Counted from the stretch's first letter, positions 5,963 to 56,882 are shown. The stretch is 56,967 nucleotides of DNA from Deltaproteobacteria bacterium (GCA_027004715.1 JALTHG010000068.1:1-56967); one strand, 5' to 3'. Notes: generated by a model not told the origin, from the sequence alone. Numbers and translations: made by a program.

Positions 5963-5981
5963 AAGGATGTGAACAGTTACG
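5963..5981 (+). repeat. GTAAC-arm repeat family: solo right arm
   Basis: aaGGATGTGAACAGTTACg, between tatC and sirC. Confidence 0.7.
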
Positions 5982-6020
5982 ATCATATAATATCAGGACG
6001 CTATAGATGAGGCAACAGAC

Positions 6021-6764
6021 CTAATCACCTGGTCTGAACCACCTGGCAAACAATATCCCGATCTCATATATGCCTATCAGGGGGAAACTCAGCAGGATCT
6101 GGGAGAAGATATCTGTTGGGACGAGCAGTACTGCCAATAGATACAGGGCTATATAACTGGCCTTTCGGTGCATTATAAAATATCTTTCTGGCACAATGTT
6201 GCAATGGACGGCAAAGGCCATCAGAAAGGGTATCTCAAATATCAGACCAAATATAAGGATAGTCTTGAGAGAAAAGACCAGGTAATTTTGGAGCCTTGGC
6301 ATTGCCACCAGATCTTTGGTTGCAAAGCTGAGGGTAATAGAGAATGCAACAGGCATTATGACCCAATAACCAAACAGGCCTCCCAGGATGAAGAGCCCTA
6401 GTCCCCAATACACGAGGTGCCTTGTATACTTTTTTTCCCTGTCATAGAGTCCAGGGGCTACAAATTCCCAGATTTGATAGAGGATCATAGGAGTAGAGAG
6501 GATAATAGCGGTCCAGAATGCGACCTTCAGGTAGGTCATAAAGCCCTCTGTGAGGGCAGTAAATATCATAGGACTGCCAGGTGGCAGTGCCCTGCGGACA
6601 GGATAGAATAGCCAGGATACCAGGTAATCTGAGAAGAACCAAGAGATCACAAAGGCTATGGCTATTGTGACAGAACAGATTATCAGGCGACGCCTTAGTT
6701 CATTGAGGTGTACCTTGAGGGGGGAGTGACTGGAAGACATATCGTCGGGTATAGCATTCAACAA
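6021..6764 (-). CDS. tatC: Twin-arginine translocase subunit TatC
   Basis: 247 aa, six-TM profile, with HLNELRRRLI and FEIP..MAF blocks typical of TatC. Confidence 0.92.
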   Translation of the reverse strand: MLNAIPDDMSSSHSPLKVHLNELRRRLIICSVTIAIAFVISWFFSDYLVSWLFYPVRRALPPGSPMIFTALTEGFMTYLKVAFWTAIILSTPMILYQIWEFVAPGLYDREKKYTRHLVYWGLGLFILGGLFGYWVIMPVAFSITLSFATKDLVAMPRLQNYLVFSLKTILIFGLIFEIPFLMAFAVHCNIVPERYFIMHRKASYIALYLLAVLLVPTDIFSQILLSFPLIGIYEIGILFARWFRPGD

Positions 6765-6773
6765 TCTCTTCCC

Positions 6774-7049
6774 CTATTTACTCTCAGAGACTGGAGCCCT
6801 CTTTTTTTCTGTTCTGCTTCCTGTTGCATCCTTTCTGTCTGATCTCATGTTGCCCTGTAGTCCTGGATCCTCTATATCCTTCAAGGTCTCATTGAGGTCG
6901 AGCTGGTTCTTAAACTCTTCTGAGGCCTTTTTTAACTCCCCAACAAATCGCGCAATCTGTCTGGCAACTTGAGGGAGCTTATCTGGTCCAAATACTATAA
7001 GTGCCAGCACCAGGATCAGGAGTAACTCTGGCAGTCCTATATCGAACAT
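6774..7049 (-). CDS. tatB: TatA/TatB-family translocase subunit (TatB-like by length and position)
   Basis: MFDIGLPELLLILVLALIVFGPDKLP N-terminal TM helix plus amphipathic helix. 91 aa, immediately upstream of tatC. Confidence 0.75.
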   Translation of the reverse strand: MFDIGLPELLLILVLALIVFGPDKLPQVARQIARFVGELKKASEEFKNQLDLNETLKDIEDPGLQGNMRSDRKDATGSRTEKKRAPVSESK

Positions 7050-7052
7050 AGA

Positions 7053-8382: not shown

Positions 8383-8475
8383 ACTAAACTATAGATATGT
8401 ATCTTAATCGATTCTGATTTAAGATAACTGTAACTATACACTGATATAACAGAGACTGTCCTGGCTGGTGTATCA

Positions 8476-8503
8476 TAGCTGTTCACATCCCCGGCCAGCC
8501 GGC
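8476..8503 (+). repeat. GTAAC-arm repeat family: left arm plus GGCCAGC module (truncated)
   Basis: tagCTGTTCACATCCCCGGCCAGCcggc, in the 5' leader of the radical SAM gene. Confidence 0.7.
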
Positions 8504-9557: not shown

Positions 9558-10124
9558 ATGAAGATAGCAGTTACGTCTACAGGTCCTACACTTGATGATA
9601 TGGTAGAGGCACGTTTTGGACGATGTCCTTATTTCCTGATTATCGATCCAGATACCATGGAGTTTGAGGCCATTAACAATGCAAATATTGCTCTAGGTGG
9701 AGGAGCAGGGATACAATCTGCACAGCTTATGGCAAGCAAGGGCGTATCGGCAGTTTTGACTGGAAATTGCGGACCAAACGCCTTCCAGACCTTTGGGGCA
9801 ACCAACATTCAGGTAATTACTGGGGTAAGTGGGCCAGTGCGGCAGGCAGTTGAGCAGTATAAATCTGGCAAACTCTCCAGCAGTACTACTCCAAATGTCC
9901 AGAGCCATTTCGGCATGGGCGGAGGTGGCATGGGCATGGGCGGTTGCCGTGGCATGGGCATGGGCATGGGCAGAGGTATGAGATTTGTTACACCCAGTCA
10001 ATCTCAGCCTGGTCCTATGCCAGATAGCAGAGGAATTGAGTCTCTGAAGAGAGAGGCAGAGAGCCTGCGCAGCCAGCTCGAGTCCATCGAGGCCAGGATC
10101 AGGAATTTAGAAAAAAGTAGATAA
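9558..10124 (+). CDS. NifB/NifX-type (dinitrogenase FeMo-cofactor-binding fold, orange-protein-like) domain fused to a Gly/Met-rich DUF5320-like tail and coiled coil
   Basis: ARFGRCPYFLIID...GGGAGIQSAQ...TGNCGPNAF is the NifX/NifB-C fold. The tail MGGGGMGMGGCRGMGMGMGRGM is followed by heptad-like ESLKREAESLRSQLESIEARIRNLE. Confidence 0.8.
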   Translation: MKIAVTSTGPTLDDMVEARFGRCPYFLIIDPDTMEFEAINNANIALGGGAGIQSAQLMASKGVSAVLTGNCGPNAFQTFGATNIQVITGVSGPVRQAVEQYKSGKLSSSTTPNVQSHFGMGGGGMGMGGCRGMGMGMGRGMRFVTPSQSQPGPMPDSRGIESLKREAESLRSQLESIEARIRNLEKSR

Positions 10125-10146
10125 TTAGTAAAGAGAGGTTAGTATA

Positions 10147-11352
10147 ATGAAAAAGGTAGATCAAAAGACTCGGGAAGCCCAGTTAAAGCTACAGAACCAA
10201 GAGATTAAGGAGAGGCTCCATCACATAAAGAATAAGATTCTTGTCTTTAGCGGAAAGGGTGGAGTGGGAAAGAGCAGTGTGTCTGCCCATCTCGCTGTGG
10301 CCCTTGCCATGAGAGGCTATCAGGTCGGCCTCATGGACGTGGACCTCCATGGACCCAGTATCCCTCGTATACTAGGTCTGGAAGATAGCCCGCGTCCAGG
10401 TGGCCGGGGGGGCAAGATGTTGCCTGTCAAATATCTCCCCAATATGGAGGTGATGTCGATTGAGGTCCTCTTGGGAGACAAGGATGCAGCGACTATCTGG
10501 AGAGGACCCCTCAAGGCTGGGGTAATCAGACAGTTTATCTCAGATATTGACTGGATGGATCTTGACTACATGATCGTTGACTCTCCGCCTGGCACTGGGG
10601 ATGAACCCCTGACTGTGGCCCAGACCATCTCGGATGCCAAGGGAATAATTGTGACTACCCCTCAAGAGCTCTCACTGGCCGATGTCAGAAAGGCCATTAA
10701 TTTTTGTCGCAAGGTCAAGATGGAGATCCTGGGCATAGTTGAGAATATGAGCGGCCTCAAGTGTCCCTATTGTGGTAAGACCATCGAATTGTTCAAGCAA
10801 CATGGAGGAGAAATAACCGCAAAGAGGGAAGGCCTGAGGCTCCTGGCAAGCCTGCCTATAGAGTTAGAGGTGGTCTATAGCGAGGATGAGGGGACTATGA
10901 GCGCACTGCAGAACAGTCAGCTCCCATTCACCCAGGAATTTAACAAGATGGTGGACAAGATAGTGGAGTTGACGGCCCCTGAAAAGATCCCTGCCAGGGA
11001 GAAGCGTCCAAAGGCTATAAAAGTACTTGCTATACCTGTGTTGGACGGAAGACTCTCACCCCATTTTGGGCGCTGTGAGGAGTTTGCGTTTATCGAGACC
11101 CAGGATGGAAAGATAGTTAGGACAGAGATGCGTGCCTCTCCAGGCCATGAACCAGGTGTATTTCCTCAGTGGCTTTACGATCAGGGAGCAGATGTAGTGA
11201 TTGTGGGTGGAATGGGAGAGAATGCACAGAGTCTCTTGAAGGAGAGAGGGATAGAGGTCATTGTTGGTGCCCCAATGGATTCTCCTGAGTCCCTGGCAAG
11301 ACAATATCTCTCCAATACCCTGTCGACAGGTAATAATATATGTGACCACTAG
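10147..11352 (+). CDS. Mrp/NBP35 (ApbC)-type Fe-S cluster carrier ATPase fused to a C-terminal NifB/NifX-type domain
   Basis: Deviant Walker A GKGGVGKSS, CPYCG motif, and C-terminal LSPHFGRCEEFAFIE...GGMGENA NifX-like domain. Confidence 0.88.
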   Translation: MKKVDQKTREAQLKLQNQEIKERLHHIKNKILVFSGKGGVGKSSVSAHLAVALAMRGYQVGLMDVDLHGPSIPRILGLEDSPRPGGRGGKMLPVKYLPNMEVMSIEVLLGDKDAATIWRGPLKAGVIRQFISDIDWMDLDYMIVDSPPGTGDEPLTVAQTISDAKGIIVTTPQELSLADVRKAINFCRKVKMEILGIVENMSGLKCPYCGKTIELFKQHGGEITAKREGLRLLASLPIELEVVYSEDEGTMSALQNSQLPFTQEFNKMVDKIVELTAPEKIPAREKRPKAIKVLAIPVLDGRLSPHFGRCEEFAFIETQDGKIVRTEMRASPGHEPGVFPQWLYDQGADVVIVGGMGENAQSLLKERGIEVIVGAPMDSPESLARQYLSNTLSTGNNICDH

Positions 11353-11370
11353 CCCTGGGACTGATATATG

Positions 11371-11426
11371 GTGACCGTTCACATCCCCGAGACCCAGACA
11401 GTTCAATAGGGGGTGTGAACGGTTAC
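11371..11426. repeat. GTAAC-arm repeat family: short doublet (left arm, 20-nt loop, right arm)
   Basis: GTGACCGTTCACATCCCC...GGGGGTGTGAACGGTTAC, between the Mrp and MinD-type genes. Confidence 0.85.
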
Positions 11427-11442
11427 ACGAAAGGAGTAGATC

Positions 11443-12294
11443 ATGATTATCAGCGTAGCAAGTGGAAAGGGAGGTACAGGGAAGACGACTGTAGCCACAA
11501 ATTTGGCTCTCTCTCTTGGGCCTGATGTTGATGTCCAGGTACTGGATTGCGATGTAGAGGAGCCAAATTCCTCTCTCTTTATTCGACCCAGCATTGAAGA
11601 GGTCAAGACCATCACTACACCAGTACCAAAAGTAGATATGGAAAGATGTAGCCTCTGTGGAAAGTGTGGGGAGATATGCCAGTTTAAGGCCATTGTCGTG
11701 GTTGGCGAGAAGGTCTTGACATTCCCTGAACTCTGCCACAGTTGCGGTGGATGCATTGAGGTATGTCCTGAAGAGGCCATAAGCGAGACAGAGAGGGAAC
11801 TAGGCACGATCAAGAAGGGACATAGAAATGGGCTGGAATTCATCCAGGGAGAATTGAGGGTTGGAGAGGCCATGGCCCCGCCTATGATCAAAAGAGTGCG
11901 AGAATATACCCGACCTGAAAGCATAACTATAATCGATGCACCTCCAGGGACCTCGTGTCCGGTCATTGCCTCCATGAAGGGCGCAGACTTTGTGTTGTTA
12001 GTCACAGAACCGACGCCTTTTGGTCTGCACGACCTAAAATTGGCTCTAGGGGCCGTTAAGGTCTTGGGGATTCCATGTGGTTTGGTCATCAATCGTTCTG
12101 GAATAGGCAATAATGACGTAGAGAAATATGCAAGAGAGGAGGGTGTACCACTCTTGTTGGAGATCCCCCTTGATAGGCGGTTTGCAGAGGCCTATTCAAG
12201 AGGAGATATGATCGTAGAGCAGTTTCCAGACTGGAAAGAGAGGTTCAGAGATCTGTATAATAAGATCATAGAGCTCTCTTCTTCTGAGGATTGA
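11443..12294 (+). CDS. MinD/ParA-superfamily P-loop ATPase with inserted 2x[4Fe-4S] ferredoxin domain
   Basis: SGKGGTGKTT Walker A, and ferredoxin motifs CSLCGKCGEIC and CHSCGGCIEVCP. Confidence 0.88.
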   Translation: MIISVASGKGGTGKTTVATNLALSLGPDVDVQVLDCDVEEPNSSLFIRPSIEEVKTITTPVPKVDMERCSLCGKCGEICQFKAIVVVGEKVLTFPELCHSCGGCIEVCPEEAISETERELGTIKKGHRNGLEFIQGELRVGEAMAPPMIKRVREYTRPESITIIDAPPGTSCPVIASMKGADFVLLVTEPTPFGLHDLKLALGAVKVLGIPCGLVINRSGIGNNDVEKYAREEGVPLLLEIPLDRRFAEAYSRGDMIVEQFPDWKERFRDLYNKIIELSSSED

Positions 12295-12306
12295 GGAGGA
12301 TAAGAT

Positions 12307-12522
12307 ATGCCTATCTATGAATTTAGGTGTAAAAATTGTGGCAATGTCTTTGAATACCTATGCATCAGGAGTAAAGATAGAGATCAGGTGCACTGCCCTC
12401 AGTGCGGGTCTAAAGACACTGAAGCACTCCTGTCTACATTTTCTTCTATAAATTCTGGCAGTAACCTGAGAGGAAGCAGGAGTACATTGTCTTCATGTCC
12501 ATCTTCAGGTGGCTTTTCGTGA
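12307..12522 (+). CDS. FmdB-family zinc-ribbon protein
   Basis: MPIYEFRCKNCG...HCPQCGS is the canonical FmdB/CxxC_CxxC_SSSS N-terminus. AGGAGGA lies 7 nt upstream. Confidence 0.75.
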   Translation: MPIYEFRCKNCGNVFEYLCIRSKDRDQVHCPQCGSKDTEALLSTFSSINSGSNLRGSRSTLSSCPSSGGFS

Positions 12523-12660
12523 GCCTGATCCTGGCAGTTGGAAACTGCCTTGGGCATAACTTCTCAATAAGTTGCGGCAGGTCCTGCAACCGATCACTGG
12601 GTGCCAGGATGGGAGTCCCGACCTATTGAGTCAGGCATCTTTATTGAGAAAGGGAGTATT

Positions 12661-13521
12661 ATGAAGGAGATAGTTATCATAAGTGGCAAGGGCGGGTCAG
12701 GAAAGACCAGTATCCTTTCAGCATTTGCCTCACTGGCAGAAAATAAGGTCCTCTGTGATGCAGATGTGGATGCAGCAGACCTCCATCTCATTATGGATCC
12801 CCAGGTCAAGGAACGTCATGACTTTAAGTCTGGGCATACAGCCATCATCAATCAAGACAGGTGTGTACAGTGCGGTATGTGTCGTGATCTGTGTAAATGG
12901 GACGCCATCAGTGAGGATTTTGTGGTGGATTCCATAGACTGTGAAGGTTGCGGCGTCTGTTATTACTTCTGTCCTGAAAAGGCCATTGACTTTCCCCTGA
13001 ATACCTGTGGAGAATGGTACATTTCTGATACCCGTTTTGGGCCCATGGTCCATGCCAGGCTCTATATTGCAGAAGAGAACTCTGGCAAACTGGTGGCACT
13101 TATACGTGAGAGGGGCAAAAAGCTTGCTGAAGAGAAGGGCCTGGATCTGTTGCTTACAGATGGGCCTCCAGGTATAGGTTGCCCAGTCATTGCCTCACTT
13201 GGTGGGGCCTCGGCCGTCCTTATCGTGGCCGAGCCAACGGTCTCCGGCAGGCATGATATGGAACGTGTAGTAGACCTGGCCGAGTTTTTTAAGATACCTG
13301 CTATGGTATGCATCAATAAATTTGACCTCAATCCCGAGGAGGGTGAGGCCATAGAGGCCTTTTCGAGAGAGAGAAATGTGAGTGTGTTGGGAAGAATCCC
13401 TTTTGATCTTGGCTTTACTGAGGCCATGGTCCAGGGGAAGAACATCGTAGAGTTTGACAGCCACTCTAAGGGCTGTAAGGCAGTCCAAGATATATGGGCG
13501 AATCTGGCACAAAGTCTTTAA
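12661..13521 (+). CDS. MinD/ParA-superfamily P-loop ATPase with inserted 2x[4Fe-4S] ferredoxin domain (second paralog)
   Basis: SGKGGSGKTS Walker A, CVQCGMCRDLC and CEGCGVCYYFCP. Start moved to the ATG at 12661 (AAAGGGAG upstream) rather than the track ORF start at 12601. Confidence 0.88.
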   Translation: MKEIVIISGKGGSGKTSILSAFASLAENKVLCDADVDAADLHLIMDPQVKERHDFKSGHTAIINQDRCVQCGMCRDLCKWDAISEDFVVDSIDCEGCGVCYYFCPEKAIDFPLNTCGEWYISDTRFGPMVHARLYIAEENSGKLVALIRERGKKLAEEKGLDLLLTDGPPGIGCPVIASLGGASAVLIVAEPTVSGRHDMERVVDLAEFFKIPAMVCINKFDLNPEEGEAIEAFSRERNVSVLGRIPFDLGFTEAMVQGKNIVEFDSHSKGCKAVQDIWANLAQSL

Positions 13522-13537
13522 AAAGGAGGTAAATAAG

Positions 13538-13771
13538 ATGCCAAGAGGAGATGGAACTGGACCTATGGGCCAGGGACCTGGAACAGGCAGAGGAATGGGC
13601 GGAGGACGTGGAATGGGCGGAGGTGGTCGTGGCCGAGGTGGAGGTTTTGCTGCAGGCCCAGGGGGCTATTGTGTATGTCCTAACTGTGGCACAAGGGTAC
13701 CTCATCAATTGGGAGTGCCATGCTATCAGCAACAGTGCCCCAAGTGTGGAGCAGCCATGACTCGAGAATAG
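13538..13771 (+). CDS. DUF5320-family protein (Gly/Arg/Met-rich) with C-terminal zinc ribbon
   Basis: MPRGDGTGPMGQGPGTGRGMGGGRG N-terminus typical of DUF5320, with CPNCG...CPKCG. AAGGAGGT lies upstream of the ATG at 13538. Confidence 0.75.
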   Translation: MPRGDGTGPMGQGPGTGRGMGGGRGMGGGGRGRGGGFAAGPGGYCVCPNCGTRVPHQLGVPCYQQQCPKCGAAMTRE

Positions 13772-13789
13772 ACATAACCCAGGGAGCTG

Positions 13790-13946
13790 GTAACTGTCCA
13801 CGTCCCCCTGGTCAGGATAGCCTTTTTCAGGGTTTCAGGAGCAGTTGATGCATCAGGCACTCTGCCTATTAATTTGCACTGAAACCCTTTAAAGGGCCAC
13901 TGGCCTGCGACTAGACGGTTGTAACAGGAGAGATGTGGACGGTTAT
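13790..13946 (+). repeat. GTAAC-arm repeat family: long form with conserved core
   Basis: GTAACTGTCCACGTCCCC...CCTTTTTCAGGGTTTCAGGAGCAGTTGATGCATCAGGCACTCTGCCTATTAATTTGCACTGAAACCCTTTAAAGGGCCACTGGCC...AGATGTGGACGGTTAT. Confidence 0.85.
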
Positions 13947-13992
13947 GACATGGGTATCTGTAGGTGTAGATGAGTTCGTATGGGGTAGACAG

Positions 13993-14373
13993 ATGAGTGA
14001 GGATTATTACGCTACACTTGGTCTGAGTCCTGGGGTGTCCTCAGAAGAGATCAAAAAGGCCTATCGCAGGCTTGCAATGCAATATCACCCTGACAGGAAT
14101 GGAGGCAGTCTTGAGAGTGAGGAACGCCTGAAAAAGATCAATGAGGCCTATCAGGTCTTAGGAGATGAAGAAAAGAGGAGGTATTATGACCTCCAATATC
14201 AACAGCCCTTTAGAGACAATATATTTAAAGGTGATGCACCTTATGAGAGAGAAGTTGATGATCTGATTAGTGTCCTGTCCAGATTTTTTCAGGAGAGTTT
14301 TGATAGGAGAGGGACAGGATGCTGTAGAGGCAGGGGGTGTGGGTGTGGTAGATGGAAGAGAAGGTGTTTTTAA
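13993..14373 (+). CDS. J-domain (DnaJ-like) protein with Cys-rich C-terminal tail
   Basis: DYYATLGL...[17 protein letters not shown] (HPD motif) and tail [20 protein letters not shown]. The track ORF start at 13933 lies inside a repeat copy, so the ATG at 13993 is preferred. Confidence 0.75.
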
Positions 14374-14403
14374 GACTGGGCTTAATGGCATAGGAGGCAA
14401 TTT

Positions 14404-15165
14404 ATGAAGATATCTCTCTGTGGAAAGGGAGGGAGTGGCAAGAGTATCTTGACCACTTTATTGGCCAAACAGGCCGCATCTCGCGGTCTTCAGGTCCTTG
14501 TAGTAGATTCAGATGAGTCTAATTCCGGGCTCTTCAGGATGCTTGGCCTTGATGGACCTCCAGTCCCATTTATGGAACTCTTAGGGGGAAAGCAGAAGCT
14601 AAAGGAGAGGATGTCTCAAAAAAATGTACTCAGGACCGACGGGTTCCTCATAAGAGATATCCCCTCTCGATATCTGGTCAAGAGAGACAGTATTATGTTG
14701 GTCAGCATAGGGAAGATCCTTCAGGCCTTTGAGGGATGTGCCTGCCCTATGGGTGTATTGAGTCGGGAATTTCTAAAAAAGCTCTGTCTCAATAGTGATG
14801 AGATTGCATTTGTCGATATGGAGGCAGGAGTAGAGCACTTTGGTAGGGGGATTGATGAGGCCATAGACTATGTCTTCCTTGTAGTAGAACCCTCATTCGA
14901 GTCTTTGAGTGTGGCTGAAAAAATAAGAGGGCTTGCCTCTGGAATGGATAAGGCAGTCTATGCCATATTGAATAAGATAGATTCAGAAGAGACTGCCCGC
15001 AGATTGGGAGATGAAGTCAAGGCCAGGGGTCTGAAGGTCATTGGGACAGTTCCAATGGACCCTCTGATATTTGAGGCATGCCTGGAGGGCCGGGCCCTTG
15101 CCGAGGGAAAGGCATTCCATGCCGCTGGAAAGATCCTGGATAGTCTCCTTAAAGTACAAATTTGA
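14404..15165 (+). CDS. CooC-like (CO dehydrogenase maturation factor family) metal-binding P-loop ATPase
   Basis: MKISLCGKGGSGKS Walker A and a conserved CXC metal site (EGCACPMG), about 250 aa. Confidence 0.75.
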   Translation: MKISLCGKGGSGKSILTTLLAKQAASRGLQVLVVDSDESNSGLFRMLGLDGPPVPFMELLGGKQKLKERMSQKNVLRTDGFLIRDIPSRYLVKRDSIMLVSIGKILQAFEGCACPMGVLSREFLKKLCLNSDEIAFVDMEAGVEHFGRGIDEAIDYVFLVVEPSFESLSVAEKIRGLASGMDKAVYAILNKIDSEETARRLGDEVKARGLKVIGTVPMDPLIFEACLEGRALAEGKAFHAAGKILDSLLKVQI

Positions 15166-15182
15166 TATAGGGAGAATTTCCA

Positions 15183-16160
15183 TTGACAGACAGCTACTGC
15201 AGGGTTATCAATTATTTACGGCTTTCTGTTACTGACCGCTGTAATCTGAGATGTATATACTGTATGCCTGATAGGGCCCTTGACTTTATACCTCACAGTG
15301 AGGTCCTCACGTATGAAGAGATCCTTCGTATTGTCAGGCTCTGTATCCAACTGGGCATCCGTAAGGTCAGGCTTACAGGTGGAGAACCCTTGGTAAGAAA
15401 GGGCTTTATAGGATTTATTAACAGGCTCTGCCGCATAGAAGGGCTGAAGGAAGTCAGCCTGACTACTAATGGGGTATTACTCAGGGGACTTGCTGCTTAC
15501 ATCAGAGAGTGTGGCATCTCCAGAATCAACGTGAGTCTAGATTCCCTCAGGCCCGAGCGTTTTTTCTACATCACTGGCAGGGATTATTTTGCACGTGTAT
15601 GGGAAGGTCTTGAAGAGGCAGAAGGCCTTGGATTTAGTCCCATCAAGATCAATGTAGTAGTCATGAAGGGGATCAATGACGATGAGGTCTTGGATTTTGT
15701 CAATCTTGCCCTAAATACGTCCTATTGTGTCCGTTTTATTGAATTCATGCCTCTAGGTCAGAATGGGTGGACTCCAGAGAGATTTGTATCTATAGATGAG
15801 ATCTATCAACTTATTCAATCTAAATGGGATTTAATCCCTATAAAATCCGGTCCATATGATGGCCCTGCCCTAAGATTTAGAATTGGAGGGACTCAAGGAG
15901 AGATCGGACTGATCGGTGCCCTGAGCAACCCTTTCTGTCCCAGATGCAATAGATTACGTCTTACATCTGAAGGACATCTCAGAGGCTGTCTCTTTTCAGA
16001 TCAAGAGGTCGATCTCAAGACGCCATTGAGGCAGGGAAAAGGAGATGATTATATCCTTCGACTAATTGAATTTGCAATCAGAAACAAACCTAAAGATCAT
16101 GGGTTATTGGGATATGGCCCTCAAGGAAGTCTCCGTGAGATGTACAGTATTGGGGGTTAG
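15183..16160 (+). CDS. moaA: GTP 3',8-cyclase (molybdenum cofactor biosynthesis protein A)
   Basis: Radical SAM CNLRCIYC, GGEPL, and C-terminal auxiliary-cluster motif CPRCNRLRLTSEG. TTG start with AGGGAGA 8 nt upstream. Confidence 0.9.
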   Translation: MTDSYCRVINYLRLSVTDRCNLRCIYCMPDRALDFIPHSEVLTYEEILRIVRLCIQLGIRKVRLTGGEPLVRKGFIGFINRLCRIEGLKEVSLTTNGVLLRGLAAYIRECGISRINVSLDSLRPERFFYITGRDYFARVWEGLEEAEGLGFSPIKINVVVMKGINDDEVLDFVNLALNTSYCVRFIEFMPLGQNGWTPERFVSIDEIYQLIQSKWDLIPIKSGPYDGPALRFRIGGTQGEIGLIGALSNPFCPRCNRLRLTSEGHLRGCLFSDQEVDLKTPLRQGKGDDYILRLIEFAIRNKPKDHGLLGYGPQGSLREMYSIGG

Positions 16161-16199
16161 AGAAGAGTAACAAACTATTTAAAGAAAGGAGTGACTGAC

Positions 16200-17546
16200 A
16201 TGAAAAGCGATGTATTAATAATCGGTGGAAGTGCATCAGGTATTACAACTGCATTGACCGCTAAGGCCCATTATCCAGACAAGGAATTTCTTGTGGTTAG
16301 AAGGGAAAAAGAGGTCTTTATCCCCTGTGGTATTCCCTATATATTCGGTTCATTGGAAAACAGTGCTCAGGATGTCATCCCAGATCAGCTACTTACTGAT
16401 GCGGGTATAAAACTTATGCTCGATGAAATTTCTTCTATAGATTGTGATAAAAAGGTATGTAAGACAGCTAATAATGAGGAAATTAATTTTGAAAAGCTTG
16501 TCATTGCTACTGGATCTAGACCAGTAGTTCCAGGATGGCTAAAGGGGGCAGATCTTGAGAATGTATTTACTATACCAAAAGATAAGGAATATATCGATAA
16601 AGCTATAAGTACTCTAGAGAATGCACAAAAGATTGTGGTGATAGGTGGAGGCTTCATTGGCGTTGAGATGTCAGATGAATTGAATAAAAAGGGTAAAGAT
16701 GTAACTATTGTTGAAGTCTTACCTCACCTATTAGGTATAGTATTTGACGATGAAGTAACAGCTAAGGTAGAAGAGGTCCTCTCTTCTCGAGGTATACATA
16801 TAAAGACAGGCTCTGGCGTCAAAGAGATACTTGGTACAGATGGAAAGGTATCTGAAGTTGAGCTCCAAAGTGGAGAAAGGCTTGAAGCCGACGCAGTCAT
16901 TCTGTCTATGGGCTATAGACCAAATACAGAATTGGCCAAAGACTCAGGTATAGAGATAAATAAGTTTGGATTTATAGAAGTAGACGAATATATGAGAACA
17001 AGTAAACCAGATATAGTGGCAGTTGGTGACTGTGCTGAAAAGAGAGACTTTATTACCAGAAAGTTGAGCCGTGTTATGTTGGCCTCAGTTGCCTGTGCAG
17101 AGTCCAGGATTGCGGGCATAAATCTCTATAGATGGTCTAATCTAAAGACCTTCAGTGGTACGATCCCTGTATTCTCTACTGCCATTGGCAATAATGGTTT
17201 TGGAGCAGCAGGTATTACAGAGAACCTGGCCAGGAAAGAGGGACTTGATGTAGTCACTGCCATATTTCAGGGCATGGACAGGCATCCTGGAAAACTCAGT
17301 GACATGCATCCCCAGACTGTTAAGCTGATAGCTGCAAAGAAGACTGGCATGCTAGTGGGAGGAAGTGTCATGGGGGGCCTGAGCACAGGAGAACTGGTAA
17401 ACCTCATTGGGCTTGCTATCCAGAACAGGATGACCGTAAGTTCTATCTTTACAACCCAGATGGGAAGTCATCCTCTACTCACTGCATCTCCAGCGGCATA
17501 TCCTCTGATTAAGGCCGCTGAGATTGCCCTGGGAAAGATCGGATAG
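16200..17546 (+). CDS. Pyridine nucleotide-disulfide oxidoreductase (CoA-disulfide reductase / NADH oxidase-peroxidase type, single redox Cys)
   Basis: FAD fold VLIIGGSASG, single Cys in FIPCGIPY, and NAD fold VVIGGGFIGVE. The ATG at 16200 follows AAAGGAG. Confidence 0.85.
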   Translation: MKSDVLIIGGSASGITTALTAKAHYPDKEFLVVRREKEVFIPCGIPYIFGSLENSAQDVIPDQLLTDAGIKLMLDEISSIDCDKKVCKTANNEEINFEKLVIATGSRPVVPGWLKGADLENVFTIPKDKEYIDKAISTLENAQKIVVIGGGFIGVEMSDELNKKGKDVTIVEVLPHLLGIVFDDEVTAKVEEVLSSRGIHIKTGSGVKEILGTDGKVSEVELQSGERLEADAVILSMGYRPNTELAKDSGIEINKFGFIEVDEYMRTSKPDIVAVGDCAEKRDFITRKLSRVMLASVACAESRIAGINLYRWSNLKTFSGTIPVFSTAIGNNGFGAAGITENLARKEGLDVVTAIFQGMDRHPGKLSDMHPQTVKLIAAKKTGMLVGGSVMGGLSTGELVNLIGLAIQNRMTVSSIFTTQMGSHPLLTASPAAYPLIKAAEIALGKIG

Positions 17547-17553
17547 TTGTCAG

Positions 17554-17694
17554 GTAACTGTTCACATCCCCGGCCAGCAGTGGCCTCTCTCAGGGTTTCA
17601 GGAGCAGCTTGATGCACAAGACAGGCACTTTGCCCATTAATCCGACTGAAACCTTCAAAGGGCCAGGGCTGGACAGGAGGGTGTGAACGGTTGC
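17554..17694 (+). repeat. GTAAC-arm repeat family: long form with conserved core (best-preserved copy)
   Basis: GTAACTGTTCACATCCCCGGCCAGCAGTGGCC...CAGGGTTTCAGGAGCAGCTTGATGCACAAGACAGGCACTTTGCCCATTAATCCGACTGAAACCTTCAAAGGGCCAGGGCTGG...GGGTGTGAACGGTTGC. Confidence 0.9.
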
Positions 17695-17716
17695 CTTACA
17701 ATAGAGTTATAGGACC

Positions 17717-18439
17717 ATGAAAATCCTGGATGATCTGCTCTCTGTGTTGGACTTTGATGCCCAGGTAAGAGACATACGCCAGGGCATATTCCATACAGGG
17801 GTCTTGACTCGAAACTGTGGCCTGGCGGCAACTCTACCGCGAGATAGTCTGCGACAGGGTGCCCCGATGGGGAAAGAACCTGGTTTTTTGTTGGATCATA
17901 CCCCATTAGAACTTGCACATATGGCCTATTCTCATAGGCTTCTTGAAGCGGCTATTGGTATGGCTACTATCAATTCCCTCCTAGAAATAGATATGGATTC
18001 CTGTATTGAGCTAAATGCCGCAGAGCTCATTTTAGAGAGGGGTGCTGGCAAGAGGATATGCATTGTAGGGCACTTTCCATTCATCCCCAGGGTCCGTGAT
18101 CATTCAAAGGAGCTCTGGGTCATAGAAAAAAACCCAAGAGAGGGTGATCTTGGTGAATCTGAGGCAGAGATATTTATCCCTCAATCGGATGTTGTCGCCA
18201 TAACAGGCACTGCCCTGACGAATCATACACTTGAGCACCTGCTTAGCCTCTGTAGGCCAAATGCATATGTAATCTTGTTAGGTGATACAGTGCCTCTATC
18301 TCCTGTCCTCTTTGACTATGGTGTAGATGCCTTATCTGGCACGAAGGTAGTCTATCCTGATCTTGCCCTTCGATGTGTCAGCCAGGGGGCAAATTTTAGA
18401 CAGATTAAAGGCATAGAAAAACTGACCATGACGAAATAA
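17717..18439 (+). CDS. DUF4213/DUF364-family protein (putative heavy-metal chelation Rossmann-like domain)
   Basis: About 240 aa with GLAATL...AIGMATINSL N-domain and ICIVGHFPFI Rossmann-like C-domain, characteristic of this family. Confidence 0.7.
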   Translation: MKILDDLLSVLDFDAQVRDIRQGIFHTGVLTRNCGLAATLPRDSLRQGAPMGKEPGFLLDHTPLELAHMAYSHRLLEAAIGMATINSLLEIDMDSCIELNAAELILERGAGKRICIVGHFPFIPRVRDHSKELWVIEKNPREGDLGESEAEIFIPQSDVVAITGTALTNHTLEHLLSLCRPNAYVILLGDTVPLSPVLFDYGVDALSGTKVVYPDLALRCVSQGANFRQIKGIEKLTMTK

Positions 18440-18549
18440 AAATACCTATCTAGTCGGGTCGTAACTGTCTGCATCCCCTCCTGTTCGTTTACGTCACTGG
18501 TCAGGAAATGTGAACAGTTACGTCAGGTCTGATGGCTAGATAGGTATTT
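18440..18549. terminator. Compound hairpin between convergent genes (candidate bidirectional terminator)
   Basis: Outer perfect 14-bp stem AAATACCTATCTAG (18440-18453) / CTAGATAGGTATTT (18536-18549) encloses the repeat doublet at 18461-18521. T-rich sequence follows on both strands. Confidence 0.55.
18461..18521. repeat. GTAAC-arm repeat family: short doublet
   Basis: GTAACTGTCTGCATCCCC...GGAAATGTGAACAGTTAC, nested in a larger palindrome. Confidence 0.85.
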
Positions 18550-18558
18550 CTGTAGAGC

Positions 18559-18900
18559 TTATGTGCCCGAGGAGCCTGACTCAAGTTCCTGGATGCGTCT
18601 GTTTATGGCATCAAGTTGCTCTTTCATGGCATTGGCTTCATTCCTGAGCATAGTGGCTTCATCTTTGGCGCTTACGCTATAACCATAAGGATTCCCATAA
18701 TATGGTGCATAATATGGTGCTCCATACCATCCTGCTCTAAAAAATCTACCACGGAAGCCAAGGCCTCCCCTAAAGCCACGGCCCAGACCCAGGCCGAGCC
18801 TCGGCCAGCCATAGCTCACTCCAGCAGGGTTGCAATAACCTAGACCTCTTCCTGTCATGGGCCCTGCACCCATGGGCCCTGTTCCATCGAGTCCTGGCAT
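18559..18900 (-). CDS. DUF5320-family protein (Gly/Arg/Tyr-rich) with C-terminal coiled coil
   Basis: MPGLDGTGPMGAGPMTGRGLG N-terminus and C-terminal MLRNEANAMKEQLDAINRRIQELE. AAGGAGGTG lies upstream of the ATG at 18900, so the track ORF start at 18933 is rejected. Confidence 0.75.
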   Translation of the reverse strand: MPGLDGTGPMGAGPMTGRGLGYCNPAGVSYGWPRLGLGLGRGFRGGLGFRGRFFRAGWYGAPYYAPYYGNPYGYSVSAKDEATMLRNEANAMKEQLDAINRRIQELESGSSGT

Positions 18901-18926
18901 TATAATACACCTCCTTTTTTTTGATC

Positions 18927-19456: not shown

Positions 19457-19462
19457 GTCACA

Positions 19463-48967: not shown

Positions 48968-49007
48968 GTAACCCTTACATTCTTCCTGGCCGAGATGGAA
49001 GGGTCAC
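48968..49007. repeat. GTAAC-arm repeat family: degenerate short doublet
   Basis: GTAACCCTTACATTCTTCCTGGCCGAGATGGAAGGGTCAC. Confidence 0.5.
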
Positions 49008-49046: not shown

Positions 49047-49172
49047 GTAACTGTTTATATCCCCGGCCAGCAATAGCCTTTCTCAGGGCTTCAGGGGCAT
49101 ATCTTGGTGCACAAGATCAGGCATTTTCCATTAATCTGCCCTGAAACCCCTCAAAAGGTCACTGCTGGCCAG
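49047..49172 (+). repeat. GTAAC-arm repeat family: long form lacking the right arm
   Basis: GTAACTGTTTATATCCCCGGCCAGCAATAGCCTTTCTCAGGGCTTCAGGGGCATATCTTGGTGCACAAGATCAGGCATTTTCCATTAATCTGCCCTGAAACCCCTCAAAAGGTCACTGCTGGCCAG. Confidence 0.85.
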
Positions 49173-49202
49173 ATCAAAGATCTGATTTTAAGGAGTAATA
49201 AT

Positions 49203-50616: not shown

Positions 50617-50656
50617 GTAGTCACTCACATCTCTGGCCTGAGATGTGAACAGTTAA
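50617..50656. repeat. GTAAC-arm repeat family: compact degenerate doublet
   Basis: GTAGTCACTCACATCTCTGGCCTGAGATGTGAACAGTTAA. Confidence 0.65.
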
Positions 50657-50757: not shown

Positions 50758-52419
50758 ATGCGTAGCGATTTAATGAAAAAAGGGTTGGAAAGGTCGCCTC
50801 ACAGGTCTCTGTTTAAGGCCATTGGTTATACAGATGAGGAGCTTCAGAGGCCTATAATAGGTGTGGCAAACCCCTTTAATGAGGTCATCCCTGGTCATAT
50901 ACACCTGCGTCAGATCACAGATGCAGTAAAGGCAGGGATCAGAATGGCAGGTGGGACCCCTGTGGAATTTGGAGGCATAGGCGTGTGCGATGGCATTGCC
51001 ATGAACCATCTGGGTATGCGCTATTCCCTGGCCAGCAGGGAGCTGATAGCTGACTCGGTTGAGGTCATGGCAGAGGCCCATCCATTCGATGGACTGGCAC
51101 TTGTATCAAACTGTGACAAGATCACCCCTGGTATGTTGATGGCAATGTTGAGGCTCAATATACCTGCCATATTCATAAGTGGTGGTCCCATGCTGACTGG
51201 AGACTGGATGGGGAGAAAGGTCAATCTGATCTCTGTATTTGAGGGTATAGGTCAGGTAAGGGCAGGTGATATGAGTGAAGAGGAACTCATTGATCTGGAG
51301 AATGAGGCCTGTCCTACGTGTGGTTCATGCTCTGGCATGTTTACTGCGAATTCCATGAACTGTCTCTCTGAGGCCCTGGGCCTGGCCCTGCCAGGAAACG
51401 GGACTATTCCTGCAGTAATGGCTGCCAGGATACGTCTGGCAAAGGCAGCTGGTGCACAGGCAGTCCGTCTGGTAGAGATGGACCTGAGGCCAAGAGATAT
51501 AGCTACACTGTCGGCCTTTAAAAATGCCATTGCAGTAGACATGGCCCTGGGCTGTTCCACCAATACAGTGCTCCATGTCCCTGCCATTGCACATGAGGCC
51601 AATGTAGACCTGCCTCTGGAGGTCTTTAATGAGGTCAGCCTCAAGACCCCTCACCTCTGTAACCTGATCCCTGTAGGTCCAGATAGCCTTGAAGACCTGA
51701 ACCTGGCAGGTGGCATACAGGCCATTATGAAAGAGCTCAGCAGGCTGGGGGTTATCGATACAGAGACAAAGACTGTTACAGGCGCTACAGTCGGTAAGAA
51801 TATAGAGGGGGCAGAGATAAGAGACAGAAATGTGATCCACCCTGTGACAGATCCACACCACAAAGAGGGTGGTATTGCTATACTCTATGGCAATCTTGCG
51901 CCTGATGGCTCTGTGGTCAAACAGTCTGGTGTAGTACCTAAGATGCTCACCCACAGAGGTCCGGCCAGGGTCTTCAACTCAGAAGACGATGCCTATAACG
52001 CCATCTTGAGGCACAAGATCAGGGCTGGAGATGTAGTGGTGATCCGATATGAGGGACCAAAAGGTGGACCAGGGATGCCAGAGATGCTTTCTCCTACCTC
52101 TGCCATAGTTGGCATGGGTCTGGATGAAGATGTTGCACTGATAACCGATGGTAGGTTCAGTGGTGGTACAAAGGGGGCAGCTATCGGTCACGTATCGCCT
52201 GAGGCCGCTGATGGAGGACCTATAGCCCTTGTGGAGGAGGGAGACATTATAGAGATCGACATCCCGAACAGGAAGATTACGCTCCAGGTCACGGACGAAG
52301 AGCTAGAAAAGAGACGGAACAACTGGAGGCCAATGGAGCCACGTGTCAGGCATGGATATCTGGCCAGATATGCAAGTCATGTGAGTAGTGGTGCCAGAGG
52401 TGCTATATTACTGGGGTGA
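50758..52419 (+). CDS. ilvD: Dihydroxy-acid dehydratase
   Basis: [27 protein letters not shown] and GRFSGGT conserved blocks. 553 aa. Confidence 0.95.
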
Positions 52420-53034: not shown

Positions 53035-53742
53035 ATGAGTAGGCCAAATTCTCAAAGAGACTACAGTATTTATGCCTGTAGGCTCTTATTCTGGCTGTTT
53101 CCGTATCTATTGCTCTTACAGGGATGCAATGCCTCTTTCCAGAGAAATAGGACAGAGGAGTTATCTCTGTCAGGGCTCAGCCGGATCCTGGTCCTTCCAA
53201 TGGACCGGGCATCTATCCAAACACGAGGACAAAAGGCGGCCTGTAACCTCAGCGATGTCCCATCCTATGTCTCTCCCATACCAGAAAAGGCAAGTGAGGA
53301 GATGACCCGACTCCTGATATATAACCTCCATGAAGACAAGAGGTTTGTATTTATATCCAGAGGGCGGTGTCTGGGTCTATTGAATTCCATTTTTGCAAGA
53401 GATATAAAGGCCTCTCAACTCCATCTGATTCAGGCCTTTGGTAGAGAGTTCAATGCAGATGCAGTCCTCTATGGCAAGATCTACAGATATGAGGATCGGA
53501 TAGGCAAGAAATATGGAGTAAAGAGACCTGCCTCTGTGGCCTTCACCCTCTATCTTATTCGGGTCAGAGACGGTGCAGTGCTCTGGCACAATACCTTTGA
53601 CGAGACTCAACAGCCCCTGATGAAAAACCTGTTTAAGATCAGGCTCTATAGAAAGACAGGCATACACTGGCTCACTGCCAGGGAACTAGCAGATTATGGT
53701 CTTACTGAGGCCACTGATGAGCTCAAGGGCCTCCTCCCCTGA
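53035..53742 (+). CDS. Putative lipoprotein (family not recognised with certainty)
   Basis: Lipobox-like LLLQGC after a hydrophobic segment. 235 aa. Confidence 0.5.
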   Translation: MSRPNSQRDYSIYACRLLFWLFPYLLLLQGCNASFQRNRTEELSLSGLSRILVLPMDRASIQTRGQKAACNLSDVPSYVSPIPEKASEEMTRLLIYNLHEDKRFVFISRGRCLGLLNSIFARDIKASQLHLIQAFGREFNADAVLYGKIYRYEDRIGKKYGVKRPASVAFTLYLIRVRDGAVLWHNTFDETQQPLMKNLFKIRLYRKTGIHWLTARELADYGLTEATDELKGLLP

Positions 53743-53750
53743 GTCTGCTG

Positions 53751-55766
53751 ATGGATATATCAATCAATCAGGGCCAAGTGGTAGAATTTCTGGAAGGTCA
53801 GCGCTTTATCTGTGCCCAGTGTATTGGCAAAAAGGGATCAAGATACCACCTCTTGACCCATCTGGGCAGGGAGATGAACCTTGCCTCCAGCCGTTTCATA
53901 TATGTATCCACACAACAGATATCGAGCGAGGCAAGAGAGAGGTGCCTCCAGGAGCTATCTGAGATCTATGGGCACAGAGAGGCCCTAAAGGAAGAGGTCA
54001 ACATCCCAGAACTCTGGGAATTGGTTAGAGATGAGCAAGAGCTCTGGAGTCCTAAGGAACTGGCAGACCTGGCCTTTAGCCAGGAGATAGGGCCTGACCA
54101 TGTGGCCGCCCTTGTTCGGGCAGTCATAGAGGATCATACCTATTTCAAATTTAGAGAAGGAATGATAAAGGTCCAGTCTCCTGAGGCAGTAGATCGCATA
54201 TTGGAGCAGAGGGCCAGAGAGGCAGAGTCCCTAAAGCGTATTGCCAGGGGAAGCGAGTGGCTTGAGGCCCTGTGGTCAGACGGCCCTCAGAGAGAAAAGG
54301 CCATAAAAGACCTCGAAGACCCACTGATCTCTTTCTGGATATCGGCCATCAAGGACTTTTGCATCAATCAGGAGGACTCAGAGTATGCCAGCCTGGTCCG
54401 TGGGCTCTTCTCTCAGGCAAGGCTCACAGCCACCAGTGCCCCTTTTGATACCCTAATCAGGGCAGGGATATGGCATGAAGACGAAAACCTGGAGTTAGCT
54501 CGATATGGGATAGAGAGCGTGTTCCCTGAGGCCGTACTTCAAGAGGCAGAGAGCCTGGCCCTATCCCCTATTGATCTCCAAAGAGAGAAGAGAGAGGACC
54601 TGACTGACCTCAATACCTTTACTATAGATGGGCCAGAGAGTCTGGATTTGGACGATGCCCTGAGCATCAGGGAGTGTGCAGAGGGATGGGAGCTCGGCGT
54701 ACACATAACCGACATAGGGCTCCAGATAGGACAGGATAGCCCATTATTTAGTGAGGCCGTCCACAGGGCAACTACTATATATCTGCCTACCCAGAAGGTA
54801 TCCATGCTCCCTGAGATACTCTCTCACGAGGCATGGAGTCTCAAGGTGGGAGAAGAGCGGAGGGCCCTGTCCTTTTTTGTGCGTCTGGATGATAGAGGGA
54901 ATATCCTGGCCAGGCGCATAGTCAGGAGTGTAATCAGGGTCCATGAACGCCTGACATATGAAGATGCAGAGGCAAGGATACCTGAAGGCCAGGCATTCCA
55001 CAGCCTATACAGGCTCTGCACTGTCCTCAAGGCCAAAAGGATCGAAAACGGTGCCCTTCCTCTGCCTATACCTGAGCTAGTCATACAGATCGATGGATCT
55101 GGAAATATAGAGATATCGCTCTCACAACCCGGTCCGGCCCGCTTTTTAGTGGCAGAGTGTATGATCCTGGCAAATTCTGTAGCGGCGCAGTTCTTGAGGG
55201 AACAGGATATCCCTGCCCTGTATCGAAGTCAGCCTCCACCAAGAGAGGTCATTATCTCTGGAGACGAGATGGACCTTATAGCCAACTTCAGGCAGAGGCG
55301 GCTTATCAGTAAGGGAAGTCTGGGGACTGAGCCTGAAATGCACCATGGTCTTGGTCTCAATGCATATACTACGATAACTTCACCCCTGAGGCGCGGACTT
55401 GATCTCCTTATGCAGCAACAGATTACCTCTGTCCTTATACATGGCAGACCGGTCTATACAAAGAGGGATCTCAACAGACTCGCCATATATCTCCAGCAGG
55501 GCCTCAATGCAGCAGCAGCAGTCCGTCAGGCAAGAACGCGTTACTGGCTATTAAAGTATATAAAGGGTCTGGGAGATAGGACTCTAGATGCATGGATCCT
55601 GGATATAGGTCCACGCAGGGTACTTGCTGTGCTCTCTGACTTCCTCTTGCCCATAGAACTTCCAATAAGACCGGGAGAGAGTTATTATCCAGATCAGAAG
55701 GTCAAGGTAGTGGTCAAGAAGGTGTATCCCAGGGAGAATGTCCTCAAGCTAGATTGGAGCGATTAG
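53751..55766 (+). CDS. RNB-domain exoribonuclease (RNase II/R family)
   Basis: FTIDGPESLDLDDALS RNB motif I, MLPE, ITSPLRRGLDL motif IV, and a C-terminal S1-like segment. Confidence 0.88.
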   Translation: MDISINQGQVVEFLEGQRFICAQCIGKKGSRYHLLTHLGREMNLASSRFIYVSTQQISSEARERCLQELSEIYGHREALKEEVNIPELWELVRDEQELWSPKELADLAFSQEIGPDHVAALVRAVIEDHTYFKFREGMIKVQSPEAVDRILEQRAREAESLKRIARGSEWLEALWSDGPQREKAIKDLEDPLISFWISAIKDFCINQEDSEYASLVRGLFSQARLTATSAPFDTLIRAGIWHEDENLELARYGIESVFPEAVLQEAESLALSPIDLQREKREDLTDLNTFTIDGPESLDLDDALSIRECAEGWELGVHITDIGLQIGQDSPLFSEAVHRATTIYLPTQKVSMLPEILSHEAWSLKVGEERRALSFFVRLDDRGNILARRIVRSVIRVHERLTYEDAEARIPEGQAFHSLYRLCTVLKAKRIENGALPLPIPELVIQIDGSGNIEISLSQPGPARFLVAECMILANSVAAQFLREQDIPALYRSQPPPREVIISGDEMDLIANFRQRRLISKGSLGTEPEMHHGLGLNAYTTITSPLRRGLDLLMQQQITSVLIHGRPVYTKRDLNRLAIYLQQGLNAAAAVRQARTRYWLLKYIKGLGDRTLDAWILDIGPRRVLAVLSDFLLPIELPIRPGESYYPDQKVKVVVKKVYPRENVLKLDWSD

Positions 55767-55809
55767 GCAGTAAGCAAAAAATGAGTTATACAAGACCAAC
55801 AGGAATTGG

Positions 55810-56661
55810 GTGGGTTTTGACATAATAATCGTCAATTACAGGTGTTATGAGGCACTAGCTGCCTGTCTTTCAGCACTTGAGAGGGAGACTGAAGGCCTGT
55901 CTAGGGTCTTTGTGGTAGACAATACCGGGCTCTCTGTACCTGACGATCTGGCTGAGAGGTTTCCAGAGGTCAATTGGCTGCTGAACAGGAGAAATCTCGG
56001 TTTTGCCAGGGCAGTCAATCAGGGCATTGCCCAAACTACTGCACCGTATATCTGCCTCTTGAACCCTGATACTGTGATATCAGGGCCCTTATTTGGGCCT
56101 ATGGAGGAGTGGCTGGAAGACAATCCCGATGTAGGGATAGTGGGCCCGAAGATCCAGGATGGCGATGGCTCTGTCCAGGGCTCTGCCAGGGCCTTTCCAT
56201 CCCTTGCCACTGCCTTTTTTGGCAGGACCACCCTTGTCTCCCGTCTATGGCCTGACAATCCCATTACCAGGCAGAATATCCTGACAGACCGGTCCCTGCA
56301 CGGGCCTATTGATGTGGATTGGGTCTCAGGTGCCTGCATGGCCATAAGGCGTTCGGCCATGGAGGAGATAGGGCCCATGGACCAGAGATTCTTTTTGTAC
56401 TGGGAAGACTGCGACTGGTGTACCCGCTTTCGTTCTGCAGGGTGGAGGGTAGTCTATCATCCAGGCCTTGGGCCTGTAATCCACTATGGAGGTCAATCCA
56501 GCAGGGATGCCAGGTGGATGACCCTCTATCACTTTCACCGGAGCGCAGTCCTCTTATATTGGAAATACGATCGTACACCGGCAAGGATTGGATCTCTATT
56601 GGCCGCAGTAGGGGCAGTATTGAGATGTGGTCTCCTGGGTCTCAGGCTGGTATTGAGGTAA
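55810..56661 (+). CDS. Family 2 glycosyltransferase
   Basis: IIIVNYR...VVDN...LNPD (DxD-like)...FFLYWEDCDWCTR, typical of GT2 rhamnosyltransferase-like enzymes. GTG start. Confidence 0.85.
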   Translation: MGFDIIIVNYRCYEALAACLSALERETEGLSRVFVVDNTGLSVPDDLAERFPEVNWLLNRRNLGFARAVNQGIAQTTAPYICLLNPDTVISGPLFGPMEEWLEDNPDVGIVGPKIQDGDGSVQGSARAFPSLATAFFGRTTLVSRLWPDNPITRQNILTDRSLHGPIDVDWVSGACMAIRRSAMEEIGPMDQRFFLYWEDCDWCTRFRSAGWRVVYHPGLGPVIHYGGQSSRDARWMTLYHFHRSAVLLYWKYDRTPARIGSLLAAVGAVLRCGLLGLRLVLR

Positions 56662-56792
56662 ATGACGCTCTCTGGAATATAATATACTATCATTCTCAAG
56701 TTTCGGAGTTGATATATCACCCTGCAATTAAAGGGTTTTTTATGCAACACACGAATTAGCTTTATATTTGCTATATTAAACGTATAATATAT

Positions 56793-56882
56793 GTAACTTC
56801 TCAATAAGTCCTGGCAATACAGTGTTTCCCCTCACCCAAACCCTCTCCCAGAGGGAGAGGGTTTGGGTGAGGGAGAAGTTAC
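56793..56882. repeat. Related GTAAC-terminated palindromic element enclosing a perfect 21-bp-stem hairpin
   Basis: Termini GTAACTTCTC / GAGAAGTTAC are perfect 10-bp inverted repeats. The inner arms CCCTCACCCAAACCCTCTCCC (56829-56849) and GGGAGAGGGTTTGGGTGAGGG (56853-56873) are perfectly complementary around loop AGA. Confidence 0.8.

Follow-up and report, generated by a model that had tools for sequence, protein, structure and literature searches.

The DNA analysed here, referred to as the window, is a stretch of 56,967 nucleotides from Deltaproteobacteria bacterium (GCA_027004715.1, JALTHG010000068.1:1-56967), and its intergenic regions carry a recurring palindromic sequence that is bounded by an 18-nt arm. 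[quoted passage not shown] Very probably, the family carries ends of the IS66 type, similar to those of the ISBst12 group, and does not consist of REPINs, the hairpin-forming doublets of REP (repetitive extragenic palindromic) sequences which are mobilised by REP-associated tyrosine transposases (RAYTs). A sequence-only reading of the window had proposed a dense REPIN/MITE-like repeat with IS66-like GTAA ends, and its interpretation is partly supported by the present analysis.

The arm GTAACTGTTCACATCCCC was detected 16 times on both strands of the whole window at up to three mismatches, compared with 0.07 matches expected by chance according to 100 dinucleotide-preserving shuffles. At up to five mismatches 24 matches were obtained, with about 4 expected by chance by our own arithmetic, and the one at 23729, located in a coding sequence, is probably a chance match. 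A repeat finder independently recovered the arm families together with one five-member family of long copies, and the five long forms at 13790, 17554, 19331, 34791 and 49047 can be aligned along a core of approximately 125 nt. Moreover, a hidden Markov model (HMM) trained exclusively on copies of the sister metagenome-assembled genome (MAG) JALTHV01 was used with nhmmer, yielding E-values of 1e-26 to 3e-32 for the long forms of the window and E < 0.01 for most fragments. The loci at 5963, 8476, 11371, 18461, 26897, 29649, 30009, 35674, 35831, 38953, 39801, 43523 and 50617 were recovered by the arm search or the HMM, and those at 37265 (five mismatches) and 48968 (E = 3.5) are weak. The resulting total of 19 to 20 repeat loci is about what the sequence-only reading had announced as at least 20, and the dense palindromic family that it described is thus real.

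The placement of the repeats was deduced from a greedy map of open reading frames (ORFs) that was corrected with the gene calls for the contig. One of the ORFs identified this contig as JALTDR010000077.1 of the NCBI assembly GCA_027074045.1; a 451-amino-acid ORF had no exact match on record. The placement table comprises 19 loci, the locus at 48968 being omitted as too weak, and all 19 are located in intergenic DNA, which represents 9.5% of the window. Copies occupy 18 of the 29 gaps of at least 30 nt and 14 of the 17 gaps of at least 100 nt; the assignment of the family to nearly every intergenic gap was therefore a mild overstatement. The accompanying statement that copies clip only the ends of doubtful ORFs proved correct, as the clipped ORFs (13933, 49104 and 29559-29981) are over-long or spurious calls: the true gene at 29559-29981 encodes TatA on the opposite strand, the ORF of the DnaJ-domain protein at 13933 exceeds its ortholog in a syntenic relative (locus L123) by 15 codons, and the macro-domain ORF at 49104 is called from a TTG start that precedes the domain by a long distance. 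Within the ilvD coding region, 21 nt at 52005-52025 additionally match the MITE core (ATCTTGAGGCACAAGATCAGG); with E = 0.04 this is probably due to chance.

A scan of a genome collection with GTAACYGTTYACATYCCC matched many contigs of a few MAGs. The sister MAG JALTHV01 (Deltaproteobacteria bacterium S016_metabat2_scaf2bin.123), which is 89.5% identical to the window at the nucleotide level over one common gene, contains many well-preserved and near-identical copies of the long form. The full element begins with the 18-nt left terminal inverted repeat (TIR) GTAACYGTTCACATYCCC, its interior is an imperfect palindrome of about 110 nt (GGCCAGCGGTAGCC...GGGTTTCAG ... CTGAAACCC...GGCTACCGCTGGCC), and the 18-nt arms are present in inverted orientation at both ends. 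Two size classes occur in JALTHV01. In the class of about 148 nt, the left arm is followed by CCGGCCAGCGGTAGCC-TTTT-NNAGGGTTTCAG, an asymmetric centre of about 45 nt is surrounded by the two palindrome halves, and the right half consists of CTGAAACCCTNN-AAAA-GGCTACCGCTGGCCGG and a single right arm. The class of about 171 nt has the same organisation, except for two tandem right arms, which are arranged as inner arm GGGGACGTGGACGGTTGC, AACAGGA and outer arm GGGGGTGTGAACGGTTAC. With sizes of 40 to 175 nt, the elements are too small for an ORF and have no coding capacity.

The alternative of a single or a double right end explains the copy categories of the sequence-only reading, and its doublets, long forms and solo arms turned out to be variants of one element. 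Its tandem arms (29659, 35825, 38953 and the 13790 right end) correspond to the double right end. Internal deletion produced the short doublets, and the solo arms and the fragment at 39793 are truncations. The individual copies in the window are the following (a strand is given where one was assigned):

5963-5980, minus strand: solo terminal arm, reading GTAACTGTTCACATCCTT on that strand, two mismatches, in the gap 5912-6020
8475-8499, plus strand: solo left arm, then the start of the inner stem (GGCCAGC); found by arm search, as repeat family D5 and by the HMM
11371-11426: short 56-nt doublet of two inverted arms with a 20-nt spacer; flanks match at 3 of 8 positions (no duplication remains)
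13790-13946, plus strand: long form of 157 nt, right end composed of inner arm, AACAGGA and outer arm; nhmmer E = 2.6e-32, alignments A1 and A3
17554-17694, plus strand: long form of 141 nt, its left arm perfect and its right arm single; E = 9.5e-31
18453-18529: short 61-nt element (18461-18521) with its flanking 8-bp duplication GTCGGGTC / GTCAGGTC, matching at 7 of 8 positions; reading order outer arm, TCCTGTT, decayed inner arm, TGGTCAG, arm; convergent genes on either side, the element occupying the loop of a terminator-like hairpin
19322-19456, plus strand: long form without left arm; E = 1.1e-27
26897-26957, plus strand: internally deleted copy that retains a left arm, the first part of the inner stem and a decayed right arm; E = 7.6e-4
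29659-29698, plus strand: right-end fragment with inner arm, AACA and outer arm in tandem, flanked by CcsA and TatA genes; E = 5.8e-4
30010-30044, plus strand: decayed left arm, then CCTGGCCGG (weak); five mismatches, E = 0.15
34800-34922, plus strand: long form without left arm; E = 1.2e-26
35674-35728: short 55-nt doublet whose flanks AATTCAAT / CTTTCAAT match at 6 of 8 positions; arm search
35825-35868, plus strand: right-end fragment, inner and outer arms in tandem; E = 9.2e-4
37264-37281, plus strand: possible decayed solo arm (doubtful); five mismatches only, within the chance range
38953-39009, minus strand: reversed right-end fragment with outer arm, TCCTGTT, inner arm and GGCCAG; E = 2.6e-3
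39793-39830, minus strand: fragment of core and inner stem; E = 1.8e-4, inverted repeats I2, I5 and I13
43538-43555, minus strand: solo arm, two mismatches
48968-49007: possible heavily decayed doublet (doubtful), seen by eye; nhmmer E = 3.5
49047-49173, plus strand: long form without right arm, forming a long hairpin; E = 3.8e-28
50617-50656: short 40-nt doublet of decayed left arm, GGCC and right arm; arm search and HMM

Two composite arrangements were observed in the genome collection. One 148-nt subfamily of JALTHV01 is nested within a larger repeat of about 205-219 nt with common flanks (...atcatttttg / gccagaactt...), which was seen at locus L033 (2738-2884) and at L108, L118, L061 and L087; this suggests that a 148-nt MITE became nested in another small repeat, or fused with one, which subsequently spread. 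The reverse strand of locus L090 (7567-7776) contains a 210-nt composite of a complete 171-nt MITE and an additional partial right half (stem and arm), which looks like a rearranged or tandem insertion.

Target-site duplications were evaluated in 98 complete arm-bounded elements that were taken from the fetched loci of several MAGs and belong to several element families. The 8-bp flanks were identical at no fewer than seven of eight positions in 57 elements and perfect in 40, compared with 1 of 392 shifted controls at seven or more positions. According to the duplications at 59 insertion sites (loci L004-L121), the target has a weak palindromic preference of approximately S-T-Y-N-N-R-R-C, and the sites (GC 0.43) are more AT-rich than the window average and not enriched in hairpins. 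In the window a duplication is retained only at 18461 and 35674. The earlier remark that convincing target-site duplications could not be found consequently holds for most of the decayed window copies, but neither for these two nor for the sister genome. Insertion into hairpins or terminators was also considered and rejected, because reconstructed empty sites fold worse than nearby controls (-10.9 versus -14.1 kcal/mol); the location of 18461 in a hairpin loop is thus an anecdote.

The connection to the IS66 family is provided by elements that share the terminus and encode a transposase. A repeat that begins with the same 18-mer is present at five loci of a cyanobacterial MAG; no fewer than three of them are identical full-length copies of 1,627 bp with the inverted arm at the opposite end and a single ORF of 506 amino acids. 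The deduced protein is an IS66-family transposase, as indicated by matches to Pfam DDE_Tnp_IS66 (PF03050; 1.3e-35) and NCBIfam transpos_IS66 (NF033517; 2e-71, 241 bits at a cut-off of 180). Full-length insertion sequences (ISs) of 1,627-1,831 bp with one ORF of about 506 amino acids are bounded by this terminus. Transposase homologs with 46-50% identity are located between the same arms in Roseiarcus and Allosphingosinicella, the right end is degenerate in a copy from Thermoanaerobaculia, and relatives on RefSeq plasmids are annotated as 'IS66 family transposase'. A metagenome scan with the transposase alignment yielded 80 loci, among which the forward arm was present in 56, the reverse arm in 59 and both arms in 43, with an arm spacing of 1.63-1.89 kb in the 39 full-length ISs with measurable flanks. 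Five full-length ISs possess perfect 8/8 duplications, compared with none in the controls; for repeats in short-read assemblies, chimeric flanks are to be expected.

The 18-nt end is almost invariant within this IS clade in cyanobacteria, proteobacteria, Acidobacteriota and Desulfobacterota. The terminal repeat of the window family starts with GTAAC. Comparably, ISDge4, a published element of the ISBst12 group, contains a single ORF and combines the TIR GTAACTGCTCAGCA with an 8-bp direct repeat (PMC12898284). In their ends and in the length of the duplication, the window repeats accordingly correspond to the IS66-family branch with a single ORF, and the suggestion of IS66-type GTAA termini in the sequence-only reading was a good lead. 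In contrast to the ISs of the IS66/ISBst12 group, the window elements are devoid of a transposase gene and 10-40 times shorter.

The copies differ in their state of preservation. The long copies of the window share 80-86% identity with the sister consensus and 76% with one another, whereas those of JALTHV01 show mean identities of 93% to their own consensus and 89% to one another. The lower identity of the window copies points to an old population that is decaying, and the copies of the sister MAG appear to be young. Presence/absence differences between relatives, which had been put forward as a check, were observed in the syntenic relative L123/L124 (CAZJZK01; 86% amino acid identity in the DUF364 protein), which shares with the window the gene order DnaJ – CbiA – radical SAM – Pyr_redox – DUF364 – DUF5320 – DUF134 – Pyr_redox. 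It is devoid of a copy in three orthologous gaps, corresponding to 17554, 18461 and 19322 of the window, although these are not clean empty sites, as the surrounding intergenic DNA has diverged too. At 19322, the homology to L123 extends precisely to the left boundary of the element and begins again where the gene ends; at the position matching 18461, the L123 gap contains the same kind of hairpin, uninterrupted and without the element. The family is also absent from the more distant relatives L126 and L127. An orthologous insertion common to the window and the sister MAG beside the gene at 37547-38821 was considered and rejected, since the intergenic flanks are not alignable.

The MITE interpretation with IS66-type ends implies that a single-ORF IS66-family (ISBst12-like) DDE transposase, supplied in trans, would bind the terminal repeats and insert the element, generating the 8-bp duplication that is seen in relatives. 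Internal deletion would then give rise to the short doublets, and truncation to solo arms, tandem arms and core fragments; the persistence of copies in intergenic DNA may reflect the removal of genic insertions by selection. Several observations weigh against this interpretation. Mobilisation is deduced from structure and genome comparison rather than observed. Three of the five complete window copies (11371, 13790 and 17554) are not flanked by a duplication, their agreement of 3/8 being the chance level. Neither an IS66-type nor any other transposase is encoded in the window according to tblastn, Pfam searches of the ORFs and the contig gene calls, as had been stated before, nor was an IS66-type transposase detected by tblastn in the loci, about 370 kb in total, that were taken from the two MAGs richest in MITEs; across the window and all fetched loci, tblastn located the cognate transposase in other phyla only. 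Since IS copies are frequently lost from MAGs, the absence carries little weight. Furthermore, the MITE and the sampled ISs have only the 18-nt terminus in common, and, of the 129 IS ends that were inspected, none displays the GGCCAG stem or the structure of TCCTGTT plus inner arm.

A resemblance of intergenic sequences by chance or low complexity could account for the weakest loci (37264, 48968, 52005 and 23729), which are within the chance expectation. As an explanation of the family it has virtually no probability, in view of the number of arm matches, the E-values obtained with an HMM from another genome and the hundreds of related copies in other genomes, by which the motif clearly extends beyond the window. 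The REPIN/RAYT model, by which REP doublets are spread by a Y1/HUH transposase acting on single-stranded hairpins, deserves closer comparison. The window family resembles REPINs in its inverted, hairpin-forming short doublets and long hairpins, its strong intergenic bias, its singlets derived by decay and the inner-stem pairing that is kept through compensatory changes, such maintenance of pairing being a known property of REPINs. On the other hand, 8-bp duplications flank more than half of the complete arm-bounded elements, and RAYT-mediated spread is not known to leave target-site duplications. The combination of TIRs with such duplications points to insertion of the DDE type. The ends are moreover identical to those of DDE-type IS66-family elements, and no Y1_Tnp/RAYT domain was found among the scanned ORFs of the window. 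The likeness to REPINs drawn in the sequence-only reading is therefore not upheld, and mobilisation by a RAYT is highly improbable.

A further reading concerns the palindrome of about 110 nt. It might itself be functional at the RNA or DNA level, for example as a small RNA, a terminator or attenuator module or a protein-binding cruciform; it would then have been spread by the transposon or co-opted from it, and the window copies would be kept for this function. The long form at 49047 folds with -44.7 kcal/mol on the plus strand (z = -3.7) and -61.8 kcal/mol on the minus strand (z = -6.6) in comparison with shuffles. In an alignment of 36 copies, 95.8% of the stem cells are paired, and both sides are changed in eight stem pairs (30 cells), more than in any of the 500 column shuffles or any slid control. 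The compensatory variants include CAGCGG/CCGCTG, CAGTGG/CCACTG and CAGAGG/CCTCTG as well as GAAGGG/CCCTTC versus TCAGGG/CCCTGA. In the decayed copies of the window, moreover, conservation is higher in the core than in the arms. However, the compensated variants largely mark subfamilies and hence represent few independent events, and extended inverted ends predict the palindromy equally. No Rfam match was obtained at the gathering threshold for the window or even at E ≤ 1 for a consensus-like copy, and a scan of the elements for promoters and terminators gave nothing above shuffles. The orientation relative to the flanking genes is inconsistent, with plus-strand long forms in ++, -- and divergent gaps, and the syntenic relatives manage without the element. 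The effects on termination and mRNA stability that had been proposed are not supported, and a hairpin maintained for its function appears quite improbable. The pairing pattern is compatible with selection on a hairpin (at the DNA or RNA level), with the symmetry of long inverted ends and with homogenisation within the palindrome. As a broader idea, which we consider unlikely but somewhat less so, one IS66 clade with a near-invariant 18-nt end would have repeatedly spawned unrelated MITEs, and the hairpin of the Desulfobacterota MITE would itself be selected; it could be needed structurally for transposition or have been co-opted as an RNA or DNA element, and not be merely a passively extended inverted repeat.

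The IS66-ended MITE family of the window has counterparts in other genomes. MITEs that are bounded by the same 18-nt end but have unrelated interiors measure about 82 nt in the MAG CAZJZR01, about 61 nt in a Desulfobacterales MAG and about 80 nt in Leptolyngbya, Nodosilinea and Phormidium, and more distant elements resembling the long form were detected in other Thermodesulfobacteriota MAGs. A blastn comparison of the long form with plasmids gave no match, and three single matches of the arm in viral contigs were read as chance. Known bacterial MITEs such as Correia of Neisseria, Nezha of Anabaena/Nostoc and Chunjie of Geobacter uraniireducens are likewise small and non-coding (PMC3184786, PMC10969869). 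The window family also shares with bacterial MITEs TIRs that are common with autonomous ISs, target-site duplications, a stable predicted hairpin, a high copy number, intergenic location, and filled and empty sites between relatives. It differs from the named examples in that its ends match the IS66 family, tandem arms occur at one end and the window copies are mostly eroded. No prior description of IS66-derived MITEs was found in a non-exhaustive search of the full-text literature. The family adds to a well-known kind of element and is no new kind of system.

The genes of the window represent ordinary housekeeping and anaerobe-type functions and encode, for instance, a CLC channel, HemA, alanine racemase, Mrp/MinD-like Fe-S ATPases, a MoaA-like radical SAM protein, GatB, MreB, ResB/CcsA, Tat components, IlvD, HisB and RNase II; a tRNA scan of the window gave no hit. 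The region 9558-20425 is a cluster of small Fe-S and cofactor-handling genes that is typical of anaerobes and specifies Nitro_FeMo-Co domain proteins, Mrp/NBP35, MinD-like ATPases with ferredoxin inserts, a zinc-ribbon protein, a DnaJ-domain protein, a MoaA-like radical SAM protein and DUF364, DUF5320 and DUF134 proteins; it is syntenic with L123/L124 from the DnaJ-domain gene onward. Tat genes are present at two places, with TatC (6021-6764) and TatA (6774-7049) at one of them and a second TatA (29752-29976) at the other. An inverted repeat of 125 nt (4531-4655 / 29280-29404; 78% complementarity) results from paralogous cytochrome c assembly (CcsA-type) genes at 4383-5210 on the minus strand and 28698-29546 on the plus strand. 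Moreover, a 42-nt unit is tandemly duplicated at 26306-26386 (39 nt compared, 97% identical), in frame within the ORF 26074-26802 that encodes a DUF3782 and PD-(D/E)XK nuclease (PDDEXK_10) protein, and a 235-amino-acid ORF at 53035-53742 between hisB and the RNase II gene has no Pfam match.

The MITE family accounts for the presence of the same palindromic sequence in most intergenic gaps of an uncultured, Desulfobacterota-like genome. It is relevant to genome annotation, as spurious ORFs and over-long start codon assignments overlap the copies, as well as to the assembly and binning of related MAGs and to the reading of promoters and terminators in the occupied gaps. The most interesting aspects are the conservation of an IS end across phyla, the apparent recurrent origin of MITEs from it and the covariation within the internal hairpin. 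Through this family, the ISBst12 branch of IS66 elements, which has been little studied, is linked to a MITE of high copy number, and this branch, with its cross-phylum terminal repeat and as the apparent source of several MITE families, could aid transposon classification and strain typing.

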